Assembly (NCBI GenBank): GCA_964466295.1
Contig: CAYXRC010000007.1
Location: 26,786 to 90,785, forward strand
Origin: an uncultured Ruminococcus sp.
Lineage (GTDB): Bacteria; Bacillota; Clostridia; CAKSNL01; HGM11501
Reading direction: 5' to 3'
Length of the DNA: 64,000 nt
In this document: positions 20,154 to 61,679 of the stretch, piece by piece
Numbering within the stretch: position 1 is the first letter of the stretch
Layout: every line of letters begins with the position of its first letter
Position numbers and translations under genes: made by a program
Notes under the pieces: generated by a model
Seen by the model: only the letters and a program-made list of their open reading frames with translations
Databases searched by the model: none
What the model was told of the DNA's origin: nothing

Positions 20154-21431
20154 CTATGCGGCGCATTTTGAGCAGGGTGTAAGCCCGGCTTTTTTCGCTT
20201 CATCAAGAGTTATTTCAAAGCTGTTTTTTCCTCCGCATTGGGGGGCTAAATGATATTTTTTTCCAGTAGGAGTGCGGTATACTGAGGTGGGAATTTTTAA
20301 AATTTCGTCACGGGAGGCTTCGGGAGGCGCATCTTGTGTTATGTGCTCGCCGACAAAAGAGCTTGCTCCTGTTTTATAGTCGATTTTTATGTTCGGCTGT
20401 ACGTTGTAGCAGTACACGCAAAAGGATATTCCCTGTCCTTTGTCAGGGACGGAATACGCTTCTAAAAGCACACCGTCGGCAACAAGGTTATTTTCCTTAA
20501 ATACCGGAGTGGAGCGGTAAATAACACGGTTTTTGGTTTCCTCTATATAATCTGCCACCATGTTCTCAAAAGGAAGCATGCCGGAAACGTTTAAATATCT
20601 GGTTCCTGTAATTAGATTTTTTTCGTTGGCGTTTTCGCCTGTAAGCTGAAAGCCGATAAGATGGCATCTGTTATAAAGATAGCCGCCGTCAATATTGTCA
20701 TAGGAGGCGTTTAACCAGCCTGTCGGCGTTACGGAGCTTATGCTTTCCCGTTTTTCCTCTGGCATTATATCTTCCGCAATCGAAGCGAAGCAAACATCGC
20801 ACCGCCCCAGGAAGTCGACCTTGCTGTAATATTCAAAGGAGCCGGTTATTATTTCGTAATCCTTAAAAAATGGCTTGTTTCCGTTAACCTCTGCATAAGG
20901 CTTTCCCGAATAATCGGGAAGGATACCGGTTAGAAAGCTATACTCGTCGTCGGTAAGCGAATCTCTTATAATTGATACGGTTTTGGTATCGCTGTCCCAG
21001 GCAACGCCCAGATTAAAGCCCTCGGCAATAAACCTTATGGGGAGCATTGTGCGGCCGTTTATAACAGCCGGCGCCGTATCGAGAGCTTCCTCATCATTGT
21101 TCAAATAAGCAATATTACTTCCGATAACTAATTTGATTGTATCCTCCTCCATTGTCAGCAATACGGCTTTTGAGCCCTCGTCCCAGACCACATCGCCGCC
21201 GAAGGCCTCTATTATTGCCCGTATAGGCACCAAGGTGCGACCGTTTATCACTTTGGGAGCAGTGCCTCGCCCTGCATCGATTTCAAAATCGACACCGTTT
21301 ACCGCCATTATGGGATTATCTATTTTAAGACTGACAACGACATCGGGAAGGTTATCGGCAAAAGCGGCAGAAGGGAAGAAGATTGTGCAAAAAAGCATAA
21401 CAGATAGGATTAAAAGCTTGTGTTTTCTCAT
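20154..21431 (-). CDS. secreted EndA-family DNA/RNA non-specific endonuclease, fused to two copper-amine-oxidase-N-terminal-like domains and ending in a Cys-rich Zn-ribbon-like tail
   Basis: The product has a signal peptide (MRKHKLLILSVMLFCTIFFPSAAFA) and two INGRT(L/M)(V/L)PIR(A/F)I(I/A)E repeat domains. The nuclease core, NRCHLIGFQL...NLITGTRYLN...RVIYRSTPVF...FCVYCYNVQPNIKIDYKTGA, aligns to the Streptococcus EndA pattern DRGHLLG...RVRYRVT...[20 protein letters not shown]. The C-terminus is KKYHLAPQCGG...EAKKAGLTPCSKCAA. Confidence 0.75.
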   Translation of the reverse strand: MRKHKLLILSVMLFCTIFFPSAAFADNLPDVVVSLKIDNPIMAVNGVDFEIDAGRGTAPKVINGRTLVPIRAIIEAFGGDVVWDEGSKAVLLTMEEDTIKLVIGSNIAYLNNDEEALDTAPAVINGRTMLPIRFIAEGFNLGVAWDSDTKTVSIIRDSLTDDEYSFLTGILPDYSGKPYAEVNGNKPFFKDYEIITGSFEYYSKVDFLGRCDVCFASIAEDIMPEEKRESISSVTPTGWLNASYDNIDGGYLYNRCHLIGFQLTGENANEKNLITGTRYLNVSGMLPFENMVADYIEETKNRVIYRSTPVFKENNLVADGVLLEAYSVPDKGQGISFCVYCYNVQPNIKIDYKTGASSFVGEHITQDAPPEASRDEILKIPTSVYRTPTGKKYHLAPQCGGKNSFEITLDEAKKAGLTPCSKCAA

Positions 21432-30965: not shown

Positions 30966-31105
30966 AAATACAGGTAAAAGTCTGTCTTCTTGGTATATAT
31001 TTGGTTAATAATTAAGCCTTGACTTTAAGCATATATAATGGTATAATGTTTATCACATTAGTGCGTTAGCACATTAGCGTGATGAAGTGAACGGGAGGAA
31101 AGCCG

Positions 31106-32212
31106 ATGATAGACGAGGCGGTATTAAAAAGCGAAGAGAAAGCGGTGCTTGCCCTTCGGGGTCTTTATAAAAAATACGGTTATCAGCCGTATAAGGTAAG
31201 CAAATTTGAGGAATACGAGCTTTATTTGAGAAATAAGGACTTTTTGGTAAGCGACAGGATAATAACCTTTAACGATACGGGCGGACAGCTTCTTGCCTTA
31301 AAGCCCGACGTTACCCTTTCCATAATAAAAACAGGAGAGGATATACAGGGCGTAAAGCAAAAGGTGTGCTACAACGAAAATGTATACAGGGTATCGGAAA
31401 GCACCAATCATTTTAAGGAAATAATGCAGGCAGGGCTTGAGTGCATAGGAGATATTGATATATACGACGTTTCGGAAGCCATAATTCTTGCCGCAAAAAG
31501 TCTGTCACTGCTTAAAGGCTCCTTTTTATTAGATGTTTCGCACCTTGGCATATTGTCCGCCATATTGGAGGAGATAAGCTCCGATGAGGGATTTTTAAAA
31601 GACGCAACGGCATACATCGCCGCTAAAAACGCCCATGATTTAAGGGCGCTTTGCGAAAAAGAGGGCGTTACGGGCGATAAAACCGAAAAGCTTTTAAGTC
31701 TTATAAAAATATACGGAAAAAGAAGCGAGGTTATAAAAAAGCTTGAGGCTATATGCTCTTCCGATAAGGCGAAAAAGGCGCTTTCAGAGCTTTCGGAGCT
31801 TTCGGCTCTTCTTGACGGCACTGAATTTTCCGATAAAATCTTTTTTGATTTTTCCGTGGTAAACGATATGAACTATTACAGCGGTATCGTGTTCAAGGGC
31901 TTTATTGACGGTATATGCGAGGGAATTTTATCCGGCGGCAGATACGACAAGCTTATGAAAAAGCTTGGCAGAAAGTCGGGAGCCGTAGGCTTTGCCATTT
32001 ATCTTGACCTTTTGGAGGGCTTAAATAAGATGAAAGAGCGAAGCGTGGATTATATAGTTTTATACGACGATAAAACCGATAAAAAGGATGTTTTAAAAGC
32101 GGTCAAAGGTGCGGCGGATGAAGGGAAAAGCGCAAGCGCTCAGAAAGCGCTGCCCTATGACTTAAAATACGGAGCAATAATTGATTTAAGAAAGGAGGCG
32201 CCGGAATGTTAA
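31106..32212 (+). CDS. hisZ: ATP phosphoribosyltransferase regulatory subunit (HisRS-like)
   Basis: A 368-aa class-II aaRS-like paralog immediately upstream of a short-form hisG. Confidence 0.85.
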   Translation: MIDEAVLKSEEKAVLALRGLYKKYGYQPYKVSKFEEYELYLRNKDFLVSDRIITFNDTGGQLLALKPDVTLSIIKTGEDIQGVKQKVCYNENVYRVSESTNHFKEIMQAGLECIGDIDIYDVSEAIILAAKSLSLLKGSFLLDVSHLGILSAILEEISSDEGFLKDATAYIAAKNAHDLRALCEKEGVTGDKTEKLLSLIKIYGKRSEVIKKLEAICSSDKAKKALSELSELSALLDGTEFSDKIFFDFSVVNDMNYYSGIVFKGFIDGICEGILSGGRYDKLMKKLGRKSGAVGFAIYLDLLEGLNKMKERSVDYIVLYDDKTDKKDVLKAVKGAADEGKSASAQKALPYDLKYGAIIDLRKEAPEC

Positions 32213-50476: not shown

Positions 50477-51925
50477 GTGAAGGAACGAATTAAGAGTTTT
50501 GTATTGATACTGTTGGTTTTGGTCAGTATAGGTCTTACTTCGGTCACATGGATGGATGAAAGGCTATGGCCGGAAGGCTATAGCCTTTTTGCTAATGTAA
50601 AAAGCTGGCCGATAATCAGAAATTTTTTCGATAATTATTATTCTGAGCCCTTGGAAAACTTAAAAAAGGCGAGAAAAATAGTAATCGCCGACGGAAACGG
50701 TTCAAGCTCGGTTTTTTATAACAGCGACAAGGCTTTTGAAAACGTCTACACCGATATAGGGAATCTGGTATCTGGCTTCCTTGACGGCAGTATAGAAATA
50801 ACGGAGGAGTCGCAGCTTTCCAAAGAGGATTTAAGGAAGATGTTAAACGAGCAGGTCATGTACGCCTATGTCAGCTATCCGGTCGCAACGACTCCGAAGC
50901 TTTTCAGCCGTCTTATGGGCGTTTCCGATTCTGAGAGTCTTAACAGAATTGACGCCGTAAGGGATTTTTTCATACTCCCGACAGGAGGTGACAGCGTTGA
51001 ATTTCTTGCGGTTGATTATGAGGATAAAAATGCCGTCCGCTATGAGCTTTTCTACAAAGGGACGCAGGATTTAATAAACTCCTTCACAAATTATGTGGCA
51101 GGTGTGGACCCGGATCATAACTGTACCTTAGCCCTTGAGATGAACTTAGATACCGTAAATGAGGACGAGGCGGTAAAAATGAAAACGGTGCTGGATTCAT
51201 TTTTGGTATTGGACTCGGCATCCACGGCAAAAAATCAAAGGCAGAAGATTTCCGGCATAAATCCCTTGGCAAAAAGCTCCGAAGCGGCAGCTCGTGCGAT
51301 TGGATGCTTCGGCTATAACCCCAAATCTATACACCGCTATGTGGACAGCGACGGCACCGAGATATACCTTGAAAACGATTCCATGCTTAAGATTTATAAT
51401 AACGGAGTTATCGAATACGAGGCGACGGGCTCCTCCCACGGAATAAAAATCTCCGGCGACGGGTCCTTGTACGAATCCCTTAACAGCGCGGTAAAATTTG
51501 CAGGAGAGGTATACTCCGAAGCCTCCGGTGCCGACTTTAAGGTTAACGTTTCCGGCGACCTTTTATACGCTTCCTCGGGAGAGATGAATTTTTCGTTCGA
51601 TTATTATTTTTCGGGCATACCTGTTACGACAGAGGTTGAGGTCGGCGGAAATAAGCTTGACCATGCGATAGAAATAACGGTAGAGGACGGATATATTACC
51701 AAGGTTAAAATGCTTTTGAGGGAATATGAGGAAACGGACGATTATTTGGATACCTTAACTATCTATGAAGCAATAGATAAAATCGCTCTGCTCTATAATG
51801 AAAAAGAAGAGCCGGTGAGAATTTATGATATTTTCTTATCTTACGGAGAATACGGGAGCGAGGGAGTTATCTCCCCGGTATGGACGGGATATGCCGACGG
51901 AGAACGTGTTATTATAAAAAATTAA
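50477..51925 (+). CDS. yycH: YycH-like WalK-regulatory protein
   Basis: A GTG start after GGAGAG, an N-terminal TM helix and a large extracytoplasmic domain (482 aa). The position immediately after walRK matches Bacillus yycH. Confidence 0.65.
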   Translation: MKERIKSFVLILLVLVSIGLTSVTWMDERLWPEGYSLFANVKSWPIIRNFFDNYYSEPLENLKKARKIVIADGNGSSSVFYNSDKAFENVYTDIGNLVSGFLDGSIEITEESQLSKEDLRKMLNEQVMYAYVSYPVATTPKLFSRLMGVSDSESLNRIDAVRDFFILPTGGDSVEFLAVDYEDKNAVRYELFYKGTQDLINSFTNYVAGVDPDHNCTLALEMNLDTVNEDEAVKMKTVLDSFLVLDSASTAKNQRQKISGINPLAKSSEAAARAIGCFGYNPKSIHRYVDSDGTEIYLENDSMLKIYNNGVIEYEATGSSHGIKISGDGSLYESLNSAVKFAGEVYSEASGADFKVNVSGDLLYASSGEMNFSFDYYFSGIPVTTEVEVGGNKLDHAIEITVEDGYITKVKMLLREYEETDDYLDTLTIYEAIDKIALLYNEKEEPVRIYDIFLSYGEYGSEGVISPVWTGYADGERVIIKN

Positions 51926-51961: not shown

Positions 51962-52726
51962 ATGAACTGGCCTAAAATAAAAACGGTTTTAATATGTCTT
52001 TTTCTTGTAATAGACCTGTTTTTGGCAGGCTGGGACATTTCCCAAAGGCACGGGAAAAATAGTGTCAGCGAAGAGGTGATTGAAAACACCGTTAAGCTTT
52101 TGGAGGACAGGACAATAAAGGTTTCGCCTGACCTTATAAGGCGCTCTTTGCCGAAAATGGGAGCGGTCACCGTTAAAAATCCCATGTCTGACGAGGCGGA
52201 ATTTATCGGAAAAATATTGGGAAGCGGCTATGCCAAAGAGGATAACCGGTTTTATATCCCCGGTAAAGAGGTTGTAATAGATACCAACAGCTTTAAAATA
52301 ATCGAGGAGAAAACCTTAAATTCCCTTGAGGAAGCAAAAAAATGGCTGGAGGAAAACGGCTTTGATTTAAGCGGCACGGTGGAAACCGAATACATGGGAA
52401 GCTATGTGTTCAGGACTGTTTACGACGGCTTCGAGCTTTTCGGAAGCAATATTACCGTAACCTTTGAAGATAAAACCGCCGTTGCCGAGGGAAGCTTTTT
52501 CTACGTTACAGAGTCCGGCAGAGAAAGCGGAGAGATACTGCATGTAACCTCGGTTTTGCCGCATCTTATATCGGACGGAGCAGAAAACTCTGAGATAACA
52601 AATATTACACCGGGATATAGGTGTATGTCCGCAGAAGATGTGCGCTTTTCGGAGGCAAGCGCCAGTCCCGTATACAGAATAATATTGTCCGACGGTCGTG
52701 AATTTTTTTACGATGCGGTAAAATAG
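51962..52726 (+). CDS. yycI: YycI-like WalK-regulatory protein
   Basis: An N-terminal TM helix plus a ~230-aa extracytoplasmic domain. It follows yycH, as in Bacillus. Confidence 0.6.
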   Translation: MNWPKIKTVLICLFLVIDLFLAGWDISQRHGKNSVSEEVIENTVKLLEDRTIKVSPDLIRRSLPKMGAVTVKNPMSDEAEFIGKILGSGYAKEDNRFYIPGKEVVIDTNSFKIIEEKTLNSLEEAKKWLEENGFDLSGTVETEYMGSYVFRTVYDGFELFGSNITVTFEDKTAVAEGSFFYVTESGRESGEILHVTSVLPHLISDGAENSEITNITPGYRCMSAEDVRFSEASASPVYRIILSDGREFFYDAVK

Positions 52727-55034: not shown

Positions 55035-55844
55035 ATGAGGTATAAAGCCGGATTTTTAGGCACAGGAAACATGGGCTTTGCCCTGGCGCTTGCCGCATCA
55101 AAGGAGTGCGGTGGCAAAAATATAATTCTGTCTTGTAAGGATATAAAGCACGCAGAAGAAAAGGCGAAAGGTTTAGACGCCGCTTTCGGCACCGCCGAAG
55201 ATGCGGCAGAAAATTCGGATTTTATTTTTTTGGGAGTTAAACCGAAAGCGCTTAAAGAGATATGTGGGCAAACAAAGGGCGTTATAAACGAAAAAAACAA
55301 AGGGGCGGTTTTGGTTTCAATGCTTGCCGGTGTAAGCATCGAAACCATAGGAGAGTGTTTCGGGGCAGATAAAAAAATAATAAGGATAATGCCTAACACT
55401 CCGGCGGCGGCAGGGAGCGGTCTTATATTGATGTGTGCCTCTTGTAATGTTACAGAGGAGGACAAAACGGAATTTAAAAATTTAATGAGGCATGCCGGGA
55501 TTTTAGATGACATTGACGAAAAGCTGATTGATGCTGCCAGTGCCGTGTCGGGGTGCGGTCCGGCATTTTTGTATATGTTTGCCGAGGCATTGGCAAACGG
55601 CGGTCTTTTGTGCGGACTTCCCAAAAATAAGGCTTTATTTTATGCCCTTAATATGATTAAGGGCTCCTGCGACCTGGCGCTTTTAACAGGCAAGCATCCG
55701 TCGGTTTTAAAAGACGAGGTTACAAGTCCCGGCGGAAGCACGGCCGAGGGGCTTTTATCCCTGGAGCTTTCGGGTTTTAGCGGAGCCGTAACCGAGGCGG
55801 TAAGAAAATCCTATGAAAAAACAAAGGCGCTGGGGAAAAAGTAA
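55035..55844 (+). CDS. proC: pyrroline-5-carboxylate reductase
   Basis: GFLGTGNMG Rossmann motif; 269 aa. It completes proBAC. Confidence 0.92.
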   Translation: MRYKAGFLGTGNMGFALALAASKECGGKNIILSCKDIKHAEEKAKGLDAAFGTAEDAAENSDFIFLGVKPKALKEICGQTKGVINEKNKGAVLVSMLAGVSIETIGECFGADKKIIRIMPNTPAAAGSGLILMCASCNVTEEDKTEFKNLMRHAGILDDIDEKLIDAASAVSGCGPAFLYMFAEALANGGLLCGLPKNKALFYALNMIKGSCDLALLTGKHPSVLKDEVTSPGGSTAEGLLSLELSGFSGAVTEAVRKSYEKTKALGKK

Positions 55845-55878
55845 TAAAAAGTTAATATTTATGTTAATTAAGGACATA

Positions 55879-55907
55879 TTGACATAAACGGGGTAAAATG
55901 ATATAAT
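55879..55907 (+). promoter_or_regulatory. perfect-consensus extended -10 sigma-A promoter for the SLH-domain surface protein gene
   Basis: TTGACA (55879-55884), a 17-nt spacer, and TGaTATAAT (55899-55907). Confidence 0.7.
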
Positions 55908-55955
55908 TTAATCAAATGATTAAATAAAAAAACAAAGGGAAAGGGGTATATTAAT

Positions 55956-58493
55956 ATGTTTAAAAAGCTTCTGGCGTTTGCCGCTGCCGCAGCACTTTCG
56001 GTGTCGCTTGTTCCGATATGGGCGGCGGAGGACTTAAGCGATGTGCAAATCAGCGCCGAGGATAGCGAAGCTATAATAAAGTACTCTACTGAAAACGATG
56101 ATACGGTCACATTTAAGGTAACGGATTTTGAAAAATACTGTCTTGATAAGACCGGCGATAATCTGGCGTATGTTAACTTTACCTTGCCGGCCTCCTCCAA
56201 CGGCTCTCTCTGGTACGACTTTGAGGGTGACAAGGAAGAAAAGGTTACGGCAACGACAAAGTATTACAGAAACGCTTCAAGCTCAAGCTACCGTCTTATA
56301 GGGAATGTAACCTTCGTTCCCAAGGCTTCCTTTGTGGGCGAAGCGGAAATTTCCTTTAAGGGATATTCCAACGACAGAACTGCCTTCGAGGGGAAAATAG
56401 TGATAACCGTCAGCGCCGGCGTAAACAAGGGAGATTTGGACAAGCTTACCTATGACCTTGAGCCCGGCGATAAATTGAACATTGACTCATCAGAGATAAA
56501 CAGAGTGTGCAGAAACGCAGGCTTTGTGTTAAGCTACGTAAGATTCGTGCTTCCTGCTGAAAATGTCGGAATATATTATTATGATTATTCCTCGGCGGAT
56601 CGCTATAATACATATGTAAAAGAGTCAACCAAGTATTACAGAAGCTCGTCCGATTCCGGCAATTATCTTATAGATAATGTTACATTGGTAACGTCAAAGG
56701 AAGCAGGGGATACCGCAGAGCTTACATATTACGCATACGACTCTGACGACGAGGAGTACGAGGGCACCATAAAAATAAAGTTTGACAGCGAATCGTCGGA
56801 TATAAACTATTCCACTGGCGGAGAGGTAGTGTTTATAAATCCTGCGGACATAAATAAAATCTGCCTTACTCAGACAGGTGCAAAGCTTTCTTACGTTAAG
56901 TTCACCCTTCCCTCAAAGGGCACGCTTTATTATGACTACGACAACGAGGATGACGCAAGAGCAACAGTTAAGAGCTCTTCAAAATATTACTATAGCAAGT
57001 CGCCCTATCTTTATCTTGTAGGATATGTTCCGGCGGCAAACTATGCCGGCACGGTTTTGATTGATTATGCTGCCTACAATGTAGACGGGGATAGCTGCAA
57101 CGGAAGCATAACCGTCAAGGTAGACACAAAAAATATTGCAGAGGCCGATGATATTACCTATACGGTAAAAAATAATTCCTACATAACCTTTTCATCTGCG
57201 TCCGAGTTTAACTCAGAGTGTAAAAACGCAACGGGTGAAAGGCTTGACTACATACGCTTCGGCACGGTTTCGTCGGGAAATCTTTACTACAAATATTCCT
57301 ACAGCAATGATTCCTATGAGTCAAAGGTAACAAGCTCCGGAAGATATTACTATGAGAGCGGCGACGAATATATAAAGAATGTTTCCTATGTTCCGAAATC
57401 AACCTACACAGGAACGGCGACAATTCAGTATACCGGCTATTCCGTTGAGGGGACAAGCTTTACCGGCAAGATAAAAATTACGGTAAATTCATCAAGCAAT
57501 TCTTCATCATCTTCAAGCGATGACGAGGAAGCGAGCGATATAAAGTATTCCGGTAAGGTCGGCGACAAGATATATTTTGACGGAGCAGACTTTAACGCAG
57601 AGAGCAAGGACCTTTTCGCCTCCACTCTTTCTTATGTTAAATTTAAGCTTCCCTCAAGCTCTTACGGAACGCTTATGTATAACGGCAAGGAGGAAATAGC
57701 CTCCAGCTATAAGTGCTATTACAAAAATGAAGAAATTCTTATTTCCGATATTTGCTTTATACCTGAAAAAACCGGAAAGATAACGATTAGCTATACCGGA
57801 TACTCTGCTGACGGTGATGTGTTTACCGGAAACGTGGTTGTAACAGTTACCGCCAAGGAAGAGGATAAGACTGAAGAAAAGCCGACAACGGGAATGGGCA
57901 ATTTCGGTTATGTTACAAGCTATAAGGATACGCTGTTTGACGATATAGACGAGGATGCATGGTACGGAAATAATCAGACCGGCGCCGTAAAGCAGGCTTA
58001 CAGATACGGCTTTGTACAGGGTAAAGGCAACAAAAAGTTTGACCCCATGGGGAATATAACAATTGCGGAGGCGATTACAATCGCCGCAAGAATTGCCGAT
58101 ATTTATTACGGCGAGGAAACCGAATTTACCTCCGGAAAAACCAACTGGTACGACGATTACGTTAACTATGCGGTGTCTAAGAAAATAATCGGTAGAAACG
58201 ACTTTACAAACTATAATAAAACCGCTACGAGAGCGGAAATGGCATATATATTTGCCAATGTTCTTCCTTTAGAAGAATATAAAGAAATAAATGACATTAC
58301 ATCAATTCCCGATGTTAAGAACGGACTTAAATACTATGATGAAATCATGCTTTTATACAATGCCGGAGTTCTTTCGGGTAACGACAGCACGGGAACATTT
58401 GCTCCGTCAACAAATATAACGAGAGCAGAGGTTTCGGCGATTGTTGTAAGAATAGCAAATCCCGAAGAAAGACGCATAAATAACTTCGACTGA
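55956..58493 (+). CDS. cell-surface (S-layer-associated) protein: signal peptide, five tandem ~115-aa repeats, three C-terminal SLH domains
   Basis: The signal peptide is MFKKLLAFAAAAALSVSLVPIWAAE. Each repeat carries (L/Y)SYV(K/R/N)F(T/V/K)LP...G(T/S/I)L(Y/W)YDY...(K/R)YY...Y(L/R)(I/V)...V.(F/Y)VP...(F/Y).G...I.(F/Y).(G/A)Y...G..F.G.I.I.V. The C-terminal ~200 aa contain three SLH-like segments. Confidence 0.8.
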   Translation: MFKKLLAFAAAAALSVSLVPIWAAEDLSDVQISAEDSEAIIKYSTENDDTVTFKVTDFEKYCLDKTGDNLAYVNFTLPASSNGSLWYDFEGDKEEKVTATTKYYRNASSSSYRLIGNVTFVPKASFVGEAEISFKGYSNDRTAFEGKIVITVSAGVNKGDLDKLTYDLEPGDKLNIDSSEINRVCRNAGFVLSYVRFVLPAENVGIYYYDYSSADRYNTYVKESTKYYRSSSDSGNYLIDNVTLVTSKEAGDTAELTYYAYDSDDEEYEGTIKIKFDSESSDINYSTGGEVVFINPADINKICLTQTGAKLSYVKFTLPSKGTLYYDYDNEDDARATVKSSSKYYYSKSPYLYLVGYVPAANYAGTVLIDYAAYNVDGDSCNGSITVKVDTKNIAEADDITYTVKNNSYITFSSASEFNSECKNATGERLDYIRFGTVSSGNLYYKYSYSNDSYESKVTSSGRYYYESGDEYIKNVSYVPKSTYTGTATIQYTGYSVEGTSFTGKIKITVNSSSNSSSSSSDDEEASDIKYSGKVGDKIYFDGADFNAESKDLFASTLSYVKFKLPSSSYGTLMYNGKEEIASSYKCYYKNEEILISDICFIPEKTGKITISYTGYSADGDVFTGNVVVTVTAKEEDKTEEKPTTGMGNFGYVTSYKDTLFDDIDEDAWYGNNQTGAVKQAYRYGFVQGKGNKKFDPMGNITIAEAITIAARIADIYYGEETEFTSGKTNWYDDYVNYAVSKKIIGRNDFTNYNKTATRAEMAYIFANVLPLEEYKEINDITSIPDVKNGLKYYDEIMLLYNAGVLSGNDSTGTFAPSTNITRAEVSAIVVRIANPEERRINNFD

Positions 58494-58496
58494 TTA

Positions 58497-58530
58497 AATA
58501 CCGGGCAGATATATCTGCCCGGTATTTTTA
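58497..58530 (+). terminator. rho-independent terminator after the SLH protein gene
   Basis: ATACCGGGCAGATAT-ATCTGCCCGGTATTTTTAT. Confidence 0.85.
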
Positions 58531-58595
58531 TATATGAAGGGTTTTCATGGAATTATATTTCTTAAGGACGGTTATAATTATTTTTGGGTGATTTC

Positions 58596-58964
58596 ATGAA
58601 AAAATTATGGATATTTATGTTCGGCGCATATGCCTATTGCTTTATCGAAATTTTGTGGAGAGGAAGAACGCACTGGAGCATGGCATTGGCAGGCGGAGCC
58701 GTGTTTTTAACGCTTTATCTTTTAAGAAAGAGGACGAATATTTTAACTTTTCCGTTTGTTTCCATGGGTGTAATAACCTCTGTCGAGCTTATTTTCGGAG
58801 TAGTATTTAATATTGCATTAAAAATGAACGTCTGGGATTATTCGGCTATGCCGTTAAATTATAAAGGGCAGATATGTCTGCCCTATTCGCTTTTATGGTT
58901 CTCACTTGGATTTCCCTTGTATTATATATGTATATTTTTTAAAAATATTGAAAAATCGGCATAA
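58596..58964 (+). CDS. hypothetical small polytopic membrane protein (4 TM)
   Basis: A 122-aa hydrophobic ORF (MKKLWIFMFGAYAYCFIEILW...). Confidence 0.5.
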   Translation: MKKLWIFMFGAYAYCFIEILWRGRTHWSMALAGGAVFLTLYLLRKRTNILTFPFVSMGVITSVELIFGVVFNIALKMNVWDYSAMPLNYKGQICLPYSLLWFSLGFPLYYICIFFKNIEKSA

Positions 58965-59004
58965 TTCGTGCTATAATAATACTAACCGAAACGGAGGGGA
59001 TTAT

Positions 59005-59835
59005 GTGGAGCTTCATATATCGGTTTACAGTGATGAAATTCGTGAGTATCTTGAAAAGCTTATAAGACTTATCGGCAGAAAATCTCAAAAGCCGCTTTGG
59101 GGCAGAGCTTTTGAAAACTGTATGGACTCTAAAAGTATTTTATATCTTGACCCGGGCGGCGGAATTTATGATTTGGCCTCGGTTTCCAAAACAATCGGAG
59201 CCACATACAGAGAATATATCGTATTTAAGAAGGACGGAAGAAAGGTACATATAATTTCAGATTTAAGCCGGAAAGCGGAGATTGATTACGAGGATATAAA
59301 TAAAGAGCTTGTAATGCGATGCGCCGAGCTTGACGGTGAAATGAGGCGTGGTGTTTTCTCCTTTATAGATCCGGATTTTATGCATACAAGGGCTCATTTT
59401 TCGGAAATCTGCCGAAAAATTAAAGACGCTGTCAAAAATGGCGTCCTTTATGAAAGAATGAACAAGTCCCTGATAAAGCAAGGATGGATAGGTGAAACAG
59501 ATGTATTTATCACCGACGAATTTACAGAAAGCGCAGTATTGATAAGCTTGGCGGAGGAAAACGACCCGATAGTAATACACATGGGCGCACCCGGGAAAGA
59601 GATTTTTGCACCCTTTTCATCTATCATGCTAAGTTGCTTCATGCCTAATAAAAAGGCATACAGAGAAACTCTTTACGCCGTAGCTTTATGGCTTTTGGGT
59701 ATCGGGCTTAAGAGTCAGTCGGAGCATCTTAAAAAAGCCGCAGACAAGTTTGTGTCGCCGGAGGAAATATACAAGGAAATGGAAAAGCCTTTAAGAGAAA
59801 GGGGAAAGAAAAATGGAAAGCAGAATCAGACTTGA
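59005..59835 (+). CDS. hypothetical cytoplasmic protein
   Basis: A GTG start 6 nt after GGAGGGG gives 276 aa. I recognise no domain. Confidence 0.5.
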   Translation: MELHISVYSDEIREYLEKLIRLIGRKSQKPLWGRAFENCMDSKSILYLDPGGGIYDLASVSKTIGATYREYIVFKKDGRKVHIISDLSRKAEIDYEDINKELVMRCAELDGEMRRGVFSFIDPDFMHTRAHFSEICRKIKDAVKNGVLYERMNKSLIKQGWIGETDVFITDEFTESAVLISLAEENDPIVIHMGAPGKEIFAPFSSIMLSCFMPNKKAYRETLYAVALWLLGIGLKSQSEHLKKAADKFVSPEEIYKEMEKPLRERGKKNGKQNQT

Positions 59836-60629: not shown

Positions 60630-60665
60630 AAACAGGACATTTTAAGAATGTCCTGTTTTTCTTTT
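60630..60665. terminator. bidirectional terminator between ogg and ylbJ
   Basis: AAACAGGACATT-TTAAGA-ATGTCCTGTTTTTCTTTTT. Confidence 0.8.
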
Positions 60666-61679
60666 TCGGATAAGAAAAAATAATGCTCCCGGACAAAAAA
60701 GCCCCAAGGAAAGAAGAATAACGTGGGCGTGGGTTAAAAAACCCGAAACCTCAAATTTGGAAAAATAAAAGGCAGCGAGCATTGCGGCCACGGAAGAAAA
60801 AGCGCATATAAGCTTTCCCGTTATACACTTTAAAGGAGAAAGTCCGCTGCCGAAAAATACAGACGCCGTCTGCATATGAATACAAAGACCGTTAAAGCCC
60901 AAAATGAAGGATGCGGCGATTAAATCCTTGGGTGTTTTGCCTAAAGAAAATATCCCGCCCACCATTTCAAAAATGCCTTTCAAAACGGCGGAGCCTGTTG
61001 TGTCAAATCCCGAAAAAAGTATGTAGGTTACTGCACGGAACACTATAAAATTTGCCGAAATTGCCGCCATCGCCTTTACGGAAGAGAAGATACAGCCGGG
61101 AAAAACTGCCGTCAACGAGGGAGGAGTAAATTCCGACAGGGATTTTTTAAGAAAGTTTTTTTCAAAGGAATACATTTTTTCTTTAGGTCTTGTAATTATG
61201 CCGGCAACTACCGAGGATAATATGTGGACGGCATACAGTGTAAGACCGATTGAGATGGAGCCGAAAAATTCCTTTCCCACGGCGGATATTACAAACATAA
61301 TTCCTGCGTTATTGCAAAAAACGGGAAGCCTTTCGGCCTCGTCTTTACTTATTTTTTTCTGCTTATAAAGAGAGGCGGCAACTGAGGCACCGGTAGGAAA
61401 GCCGCCTAAGGTCCCTAAAACAAAAGCGGAGGCGGCAGGTACGCTTATATTGAAAACGGGACACAAAAGCGGAGCGAAAACCGAAGAAAGAACGCCGCCG
61501 CAAAACTGTGACAAAAGACTTGAGAAAAATAAAAAAGGGAAAAGGGAGGGAATCAGCGTATTAAGACATATATCAACGCCGCTTTTTACGGCGTCTACGC
61601 AAAGACTGTTTTTAAATGGCAATAGAAACGTAATAAAGCAAATAAGAAAAATATTTATCCAGCCTAATTTTCTATTCAC
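60642..61679 (-). CDS. ylbJ: sporulation integral membrane protein YlbJ-like (two nucleoside-recognition/Gate domains)
   Basis: A 345-aa polytopic membrane protein with a duplicated Gate-like architecture. Confidence 0.6.
   Translation of the reverse strand: MNRKLGWINIFLICFITFLLPFKNSLCVDAVKSGVDICLNTLIPSLFPFLFFSSLLSQFCGGVLSSVFAPLLCPVFNISVPAASAFVLGTLGGFPTGASVAASLYKQKKISKDEAERLPVFCNNAGIMFVISAVGKEFFGSISIGLTLYAVHILSSVVAGIITRPKEKMYSFEKNFLKKSLSEFTPPSLTAVFPGCIFSSVKAMAAISANFIVFRAVTYILFSGFDTTGSAVLKGIFEMVGGIFSLGKTPKDLIAASFILGFNGLCIHMQTASVFFGSGLSPLKCITGKLICAFSSVAAMLAAFYFSKFEVSGFLTHAHVILLSLGLFCPGALFFLIRKRKTGHS

Follow-up and report, generated by a model that had tools for sequence, protein, structure and literature searches.

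The closest described counterparts of the protein analyzed here are the surface (S)-layer proteins Sap and EA1 of Bacillus anthracis and SbsB of Geobacillus. These proteins have a Sec signal peptide, three S-layer homology (SLH) motifs, an acidic mature chain of about 90 kDa, some five to six immunoglobulin (Ig)-like beta-sandwich domains in a row, and a very strong promoter. The same plan is found in a gene at positions 55956 to 58493 (+) of a 64,000-nucleotide stretch (the window) of contig CAYXRC010000007.1 from an uncultured Ruminococcus sp. The gene starts with ATG, encodes 845 amino acids (aa), and is the sole long open reading frame (ORF) of the interval 55879 to 58493. We propose, with a probability of roughly 0.55, that it encodes an abundant, SLH-anchored surface-coat protein that is a candidate S-layer subunit. 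This proposal is based on an invariant, maximal promoter, a monocistronic unit, an S-layer-like composition, an ectodomain that consists entirely of Ig-like domains and has no head, and a fixed set of domains that are conserved individually. Sap is also the nearest relative of the SLH region in the PDB, and SbsB and SbsC are among the fold matches. However, the SLH triplet is N-terminal in Sap, EA1, and SbsB and C-terminal here, and their Ig-like domains are heterogeneous, whereas this protein repeats a single cadherin-like module five times. Sequence similarity is confined to the SLH region, and the known proteins form lattices, whereas the present one is a sequence-based candidate.

The mature protein of about 91.5 kDa has a pI of 4.55 and contains 9.3% Tyr (10.4% in the repeats), no His, 6 Met, and 7 Cys, a composition within the norm for S-layer proteins (40 to 200 kDa, acidic pI, few or no Cys, His, and Met). 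Residues 1 to 23 (55956 to 56024, +; MFKKLLAFAAAAALSVSLVPIWA|AEDL, with predicted cleavage after IWA) were assigned as a Sec signal peptide by inspection from a basic N terminus, a hydrophobic core, and an A-x-A-like site; in the AlphaFold2 model this segment is a lone helix of low predicted local distance difference test score (pLDDT). The C-terminal part, aa 661 to 845 (57936 to 58490, +), carries three SLH motifs and is the wall-anchoring module. Pfam PF00395 matches it in three stretches with 64.5 bits against a cut-off of 20.8 (E value, 8.8e-18), and the motifs are TIAE at 702, TRAE at 758, and TRAE at 822. R759 and R823-A824-E825 are invariant in 26 relatives, and the TRAE-type motif contacts the polymer in solved SLH domains. 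The nearest solved relative of the region is the SLH domain of B. anthracis Sap (3pyw; E value, 6.7e-6), and the region is helical in the AlphaFold2 model, with a pLDDT of 85 to 95. After Sec export and removal of the signal peptide, the module would fold into the usual three-pronged unit and bind a secondary cell wall polymer, presumably pyruvylated, in a noncovalent manner. The protein would thus be kept on the peptidoglycan, with its five N-terminal domains projecting outward.

The promoter (55879 to 55907, +) is of the sigma-70/sigma-A type with an extended -10 element. It consists of TTGACA (55879 to 55884), TG (55899 to 55900), and TATAAT (55902 to 55907) with a 17-nucleotide (nt) spacing and scores 12/12 with the TG. 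The exact pattern TTGACA-N14-TGnTATAAT occurs once in the window and was not found in any of 100 dinucleotide-preserving shuffles; sites with one mismatch number only two in the window, and both lie elsewhere than at this gene. The promoter was compared among six orthologous loci, consisting of this one and five others with 70, 61, 55, 49, and 47% protein identity; two orthologous loci were yielded by a contig search with exact peptide patterns. All six have TTGACA-N17-TGnTATAAT followed by TTA, with identical hexamers, TG, and TTA, whereas the 14 spacer positions 5' of the TG are unrelated in sequence. The arrangement is kept even at the locus whose gene neighborhood is entirely different (L006). 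The invariance of these elements over the six loci while the spacers diverge indicates that the promoter is under selection. Together, the consensus promoter and its conservation across loci provide good support for a very high predicted expression of the SLH protein gene.

Other signals frame the gene as a unit of its own. The A/T-rich segment between the proC stop codon and the -35 hexamer (55836 to 55878, +) contains AAAAAGTTAAT twice and may be an UP element. Tandem Repeats Finder detected a period-10 direct repeat at 55836 to 55857, and an upstream A/T motif, AATAAAAAGTTAA(T/C)A, is kept in two orthologous loci (L002 and L003). The leader of about 42 nt has no notable structure, and a regulatory or stabilizing 5' leader structure was rejected since the fold stability did not stand out from that of shuffled sequences (z, -0.43). 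The Shine-Dalgarno region GGGAAAGGGG (55937 to 55946, +) lies 9 nt 5' of the ATG and is kept as GAGGGAAAGG(A/G)G in the same two loci. An intrinsic terminator follows at 58496 to 58537 (+), with a 14-bp stem containing 7 G-C pairs, a 4-nt loop, and a T-rich tail; the hairpin itself spans 58496 to 58527. With its own promoter, ribosome binding site, and strong terminator, the gene therefore forms an independent monocistronic unit. The near-maximal housekeeping-sigma promoter would drive this single-gene unit to yield an abundant, acidic surface protein. No terminator is present between proC and the promoter at this locus, and a hairpin occurs there in one orthologous locus (L005).

The region between the signal peptide and the SLH module is composed mainly of five tandem repeats of about 115 to 125 aa, anchored by the motif L.Y[VI].F at aa 70, 192, 311, 430, and 558. 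Repeat 1, the most distal cadherin-like beta-sandwich, spans aa 34 to 160 (56055 to 56435, +; 122.6 bits against the family profile described below), repeat 2 spans aa 159 to 281 (56430 to 56798, +; 98.8 bits), repeat 3, which was also modeled alone, spans aa 280 to 396 (56793 to 57143, +), and repeat 4 spans aa 397 to 517 (57144 to 57506, +; 119.0 bits). Repeat 5 is the shortest, has a shortened C-D loop, and spans aa 526 to 638 (57531 to 57869, +; 98.2 bits). The repeats are 33 to 39% identical to one another, and each scores 98 to 123 bits. A flexible linker rich in Ser, Asp, and Glu (NSSSNSSSSSSDDEE; aa 509 to 525; 57480 to 57530, +) lies between repeats 4 and 5, and a linker rich in Lys, Glu, and Thr (KEEDKTEEKPTT) together with the lead-in to the SLH region occupies aa 639 to 660 (57870 to 57935, +). 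Much of this organization had been anticipated by the first-pass annotation, which described a textbook TTGACA-17-TGnTATAAT promoter, a surface protein with five tandem repeats of about 115 aa after the signal peptide, and an anchor of three C-terminal SLH domains; these descriptions agree with the promoter comparison, the repeat boundaries, and the Pfam scan. It had also placed a Ser-rich linker before the SLH domains; the Ser-rich run exists but sits between repeats 4 and 5, and the linker preceding the SLH module is the one rich in Lys, Glu, and Thr.

The identity of the repeats is not evident from this protein by itself, since they score below threshold with every Pfam and NCBIfam model. 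In a direct Pfam scan, CshA_repeat (PF19076) scored 21.7 bits against a cut-off of 27 and Cadherin_5 scored 16.0 against 26.5, and Big_9 was not reported on the full protein. The NCBIfam models tandem-95 (NF012211) and CshA fibril repeat (TIGR04225) scored 20.7 bits against 90 and 16.1 bits against 60, respectively. Repeat 3 alone had no Pfam match at an E value of <=0.01. When PDB sequences were searched with a profile, the sole match was marginal (E value, 0.028) and involved the C-terminal strands of an RTX protein. Homologues were detected with a profile built from the five copies, and all 120 that were listed contain 4 to 8 tandem copies; the few with a source name are SLH proteins from Oscillibacter, Intestinimonas, Oscillospiraceae, and unnamed Clostridia or Bacillota metagenome-assembled genomes (MAGs). 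A family profile of 146 diverse repeat copies (A2) matches 9800 clusters at 50% identity (E value, <=1e-3), 855 of them at an E value of <=1e-30, and the majority of the family belongs to SLH proteins from Oscillospirales of the gut. Pfam matches to Cadherin_5 and Big_9 (E value, <=0.01) were obtained for 36 and 25 of these 146 copies, respectively. In whole SLH homologues, Cadherin_5 passes its threshold only through summed partial matches at profile positions of about 62 to 98, which correspond to the last 36 or so residues, the F-G hairpin, of each repeat.

The link to named families is provided by two giant proteins found with the family profile, P0150 (4957 aa) and P0158 (3467 aa), which have 23 to 36 repeat copies and no SLH match at an E value of <=1e-4. 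Each of their repeats matches positions 2 to 117 of the family profile at 30 to 47 bits, and Pfam calls the same repeats complete Cadherin_5, Big_9, and Cadherin_4 domains (for example, aa 2883 to 2994 against profile positions 2 to 98 of 98; 1038 bits for the protein in total). An hhalign comparison of the family profile with an alignment of these repeats gave a probability of 98.0% (E value, 1.7e-13) over 109 columns, including the helix-bearing N-terminal part. Because this full-length alignment is to repeats that Pfam scores as complete domains, the profile comparisons indicate that the repeats belong to the bacterial cadherin-like superfamily (Cadherin_5/Big_9) as a diverged branch and are no new domain. 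The first-pass annotation had called them novel unless they matched a cadherin-like or Big domain with high confidence, and the hhalign result effectively amounts to such a match in a family that is very common. Its guess of an Ig-like beta-sandwich was borne out by the structural models described below. The giant proteins also show that the repeat module serves as an extender in very long surface proteins; they also match other Pfam models, FctA isopeptide-type, He_PIG, and Calx-beta among them, but more weakly and for the most part incompletely.

Homology to Cadherin_5 (PF17892), Big_9 (PF17963), and Cadherin_4 (PF17803) extends over the whole domain. Common to both sides are the F-G hairpin motif F.P...y.Gt..f.Yt..D..G....g.v.i.V and the helix-bearing N-terminal motif f.a.DF...f.d..G..L..V.f..LP..G.L. 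However, the present protein stays under the gathering thresholds, and its C-D region is longer and Tyr-rich (LYYxY ... KYY), so that its repeats measure about 115 to 125 aa compared with about 90 to 98 positions in the Pfam models. In addition, the repeats are attached to SLH domains here, whereas those of the named families occur in giant multirepeat proteins. The first-pass annotation had taken the Tyr-rich strand pattern as a hint of a carbohydrate- or surface-binding module; the most conserved positions, in repeat 3 numbering, are G43, L45, Y49, and G104, which look like fold determinants. A literature search covering S-layers in Oscillospiraceae or Oscillibacter and SLH domains combined with cadherin-like domains found nothing on this repeat family. 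Whatever the role of the coat, there is an annotation gap, because a very large family of cadherin-like repeats of about 120 aa is only partly seen by Pfam. Its members go under the generic label of S-layer homology domain-containing protein, and a dedicated profile would improve the annotation of surface proteins in gut metagenomes.

AlphaFold2 modeled repeat 3, with the alignment of 146 sequences, at a pLDDT of 93.5 and a predicted template modeling score (pTM) of 0.85. The model is an Ig/cadherin-like beta-sandwich with one alpha-helix (residues 17 to 28) between strands A and B. Foldseek returned nothing at an E value of <=1e-3 for this model, and the top ranks, all above that value, were dystroglycan, classical cadherins, and Rib. 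Identities between the repeats and those of eukaryotic cadherins, dystroglycan-type CADG, and CSPG proteins are about 3 to 16%, and the repeats differ from them in the extra helix and in the absence of the canonical calcium-linker motifs of cadherins (DxNDN, DRE/LDRE, and DxD), none of which was found by a regular-expression search of the protein. In the full-length model (pLDDT, 77.8; pTM, 0.33), the strand-helix-strand topology is common to all five repeats, and low-confidence linkers occur at aa 278 to 281, 514 to 523, and 635 to 643, with a pLDDT of <50 at the latter two. The shared topology, the low pTM, and the low-confidence linkers suggest that the modeled ectodomain fits five beads on a string attached to the SLH anchor. 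In Foldseek, the full-length model matched tandem Ig arrays, namely the ectodomains of cadherins and protocadherins, SbsB, and an extender from an RTX adhesin, with TM-scores of just 0.07 to 0.14, which indicate no more than a tandem Ig-like array.

The five-domain architecture is fixed in close relatives. In the orthologue clade, which consists of proteins of about 840 to 870 aa (P0002 to P0022), every repeat has its best match in the query repeat of the same position, and 20 of the 21 close homologues have five copies. The exception (P0019; 1184 aa) has eight repeats, seven of which follow the order r2-r3 and then r1-r2-r3-r4-r5 by best match, whereas the remaining copy is unassigned; this variant shows that duplication of whole blocks can enlarge the array. 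Tandem Repeats Finder detected no DNA-level tandem repeat within the gene, and the five repeats are therefore old; together with the positional orthology, this led to the rejection of a recent repeat expansion or slippage. Each domain has therefore kept its own identity, as is expected with fixed interdomain contacts, unlike in a length-variable stalk. The five domains would thus be old, individually specialized members of the Cadherin_5/Big_9 superfamily, distinguished by the extra helix. Mean pairwise identity among the orthologues is 0.71 for SLH1, 0.62 for repeat 3, 0.60 for repeat 4, 0.54 for repeat 2, 0.51 for repeat 5, 0.49 for repeat 1, which is the most variable repeat, and 0.18 for the N-terminal tail. 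In more distant homologues, the positional correspondence is lost and N-terminal Big_2 Ig domains are added. No enzyme or lectin head was found in this protein or in its larger homologues. Identical copies of the protein are recorded in an NCBI assembly and in Logan assemblies built from public sequencing runs, and the nearest relatives in genome collections are a human-gut MAG named "Clostridia bacterium" and a MAG named "uncultured Ruminococcus sp."

The architecture and the mode of anchoring are firmly established. The most probable role of the protein is that of the main protein coat, either an S-layer subunit or an S-layer-like array, of an uncultured gut Clostridia (Oscillospirales-like) bacterium. 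Several observations weigh against it. Characterized lattice-forming S-layer proteins of the SLH type (Sap, EA1, SbsB, and SpaA) bear their SLH domains N-terminally, and a C-terminal triplet is more usual for exoenzymes, cellulosome anchors, and other proteins that are associated with the S-layer. Adhesins are the best-known carriers of the domain superfamily (Cadherin_5, Big_9, CshA, and RTX extender). In addition, thousands of proteins contain repeats of this family, among them giant ones that are not S-layer-like and have up to 36 copies, and possession of the domain is therefore no sign of a lattice. Codon bias is slightly above the local norm (effective number of codons, 45.4 compared with about 48 to 49), which favors the coat role, but it is weak, and codon usage gives no clear high-expression signal when compared with this norm rather than with highly expressed reference genes. 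No pyruvyl transferase was found among the 20 window ORFs scanned against Pfam, beyond which csaB was not sought. The narrower idea that this protein and its five-repeat orthologues of about 850 aa build the S-layer lattice itself in a clade of uncultured gut Clostridia is put forward only tentatively. If true, they would represent a previously undescribed S-layer family with C-terminal SLH domains, an ectodomain composed entirely of helix-bearing cadherin-like domains, and an invariant perfect promoter, and the larger, Big_2-carrying relatives would form the S-layers of common gut commensals such as Oscillibacter and Intestinimonas. If the protein is the major coat component, this group would have in it the principal surface antigen and a likely contact surface for phages or immunoglobulins, and the invariant promoter and leader could serve as a strong expression signal in related organisms. 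Apart from the coat role, the architecture is familiar, that of an SLH-anchored surface protein made of cadherin-like Ig domains.

The main alternative, which we regard as less likely, is that of an S-layer-associated adhesin, anchored by its SLH domains beneath or among a different S-layer, with the five domains acting as extender and binding module without forming a lattice; it would bind to mucus or glycans of the host, to particles of the diet, or to other cells. The homology of the repeats to Cadherin_5, Big_9, and Cadherin_4 and their weak similarity to CshA and RTX-adhesin repeats, which are families typical of adhesins, agree with such a role, as do the C-terminal SLH placement typical of S-layer-associated proteins and the aromatic-rich nature of the repeats. 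In L006, another SLH protein is encoded close to the orthologue, and a second SLH protein is thus present in at least one relative. Fibrillar and RTX adhesins also have tandem Ig-like arrays among the Foldseek matches (for example, 6xi1). However, the sequence matches to CshA_repeat, TIGR04225, tandem-95, and RTX extenders are all far under threshold, and the present protein has just five nonidentical repeats of a single module, no distinct ligand-binding tip domain, and an SLH anchor instead of an LPXTG or type 1 secretion signal. A perfect extended -10 promoter kept throughout the clade would be unusual for an accessory adhesin, and the canonical cadherin calcium-linker motifs are absent. 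The positional orthology, the nearly constant copy number, and the unhomogenized repeats also differ from the length-variable stalks of many adhesins.

The surface-coat reading shares its evidence for abundance and anchoring with another, improbable alternative, in which the protein is a passive protective or spacing coat (a shield against phages or immunoglobulins, or a spacer for wall-bound proteins) that is abundant but neither crystalline nor adhesive. The outermost repeat 1 and the N-terminal tail are the most variable parts and SLH1 is much more conserved, as expected under exposure to phages or antibodies. However, the gradient is modest, with the wall-proximal repeat 5 nearly as variable as repeat 1, and the sequence gives nothing that separates a passive coat from an S-layer role. 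That the repeats are a truly new domain family, a novel carbohydrate-binding module unrelated to named Ig- or cadherin-like families, is highly improbable, for the subthreshold Pfam and NCBIfam scores of this protein, the unmatched repeat 3, and the restriction of Cadherin_5 to the end of each repeat in SLH homologues are outweighed by the full-length profile alignment, the scores of the giant-protein repeats, the direct Cadherin_5 and Big_9 matches of family members, and the ordinary Ig/cadherin-like fold.

The gene lies in an ordinary chromosomal region with gyrA, nrdD, dxs, secDF, proBAC, an OGG glycosylase gene, and yqfD as neighbors, and it encodes the only SLH or repeat protein in the window. 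Horizontal acquisition was rejected since its GC content and codon use match the surroundings. In closer relatives, the SLH protein gene is also located 3' of proB-proA-proC. A functional link to these upstream genes was rejected because the gene retains its promoter in L006, where the synteny has broken down, and the linkage looks positional rather than functional. Four flanking ORFs, at 50477 to 51925, 51962 to 52726, and 58906 to 59835 (+) and at 60642 to 61679 (-), of 482, 254, 309, and 345 aa, respectively, had no Pfam match at an E value of <=1e-3.

Downstream of the gene, a palindrome with an 8-bp stem (58865 to 58884) scores as a terminator on either strand, and a promoter scoring 11/12 with a TG lies at 58948 to 58977, inside the mechanically called ORF 58906 to 59835. 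This terminator and internal promoter suggest that the true start of the latter gene is probably downstream of 58977 and that the gene for a small CmpB-like membrane protein at 58584 to 58964 is probably a separate unit. Elsewhere in the window, a 425-aa protein encoded at 20154 to 21431 (-) combines a Cu_amine_oxidN1 domain with a nonspecific DNA/RNA endonuclease domain. Cu_amine_oxidN1 proteins also occur near relatives of the SLH gene in three other loci (L005, 1 to 2836; L006, 12423 to 14012; L007, 5955 to 6794), and given this recurrence, the domain may be a second kind of surface-attachment module in these organisms. In addition, an extended -10 promoter with one mismatch, TTGACT-N14-TGGTATAAT, is present at 31019 to 31047 (+), just 5' of ORF 31106 to 32212. 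This ORF is the first in a long run of codirectional, tightly packed ORFs that extends to about 39273, and the site is probably the strong promoter of a large operon.

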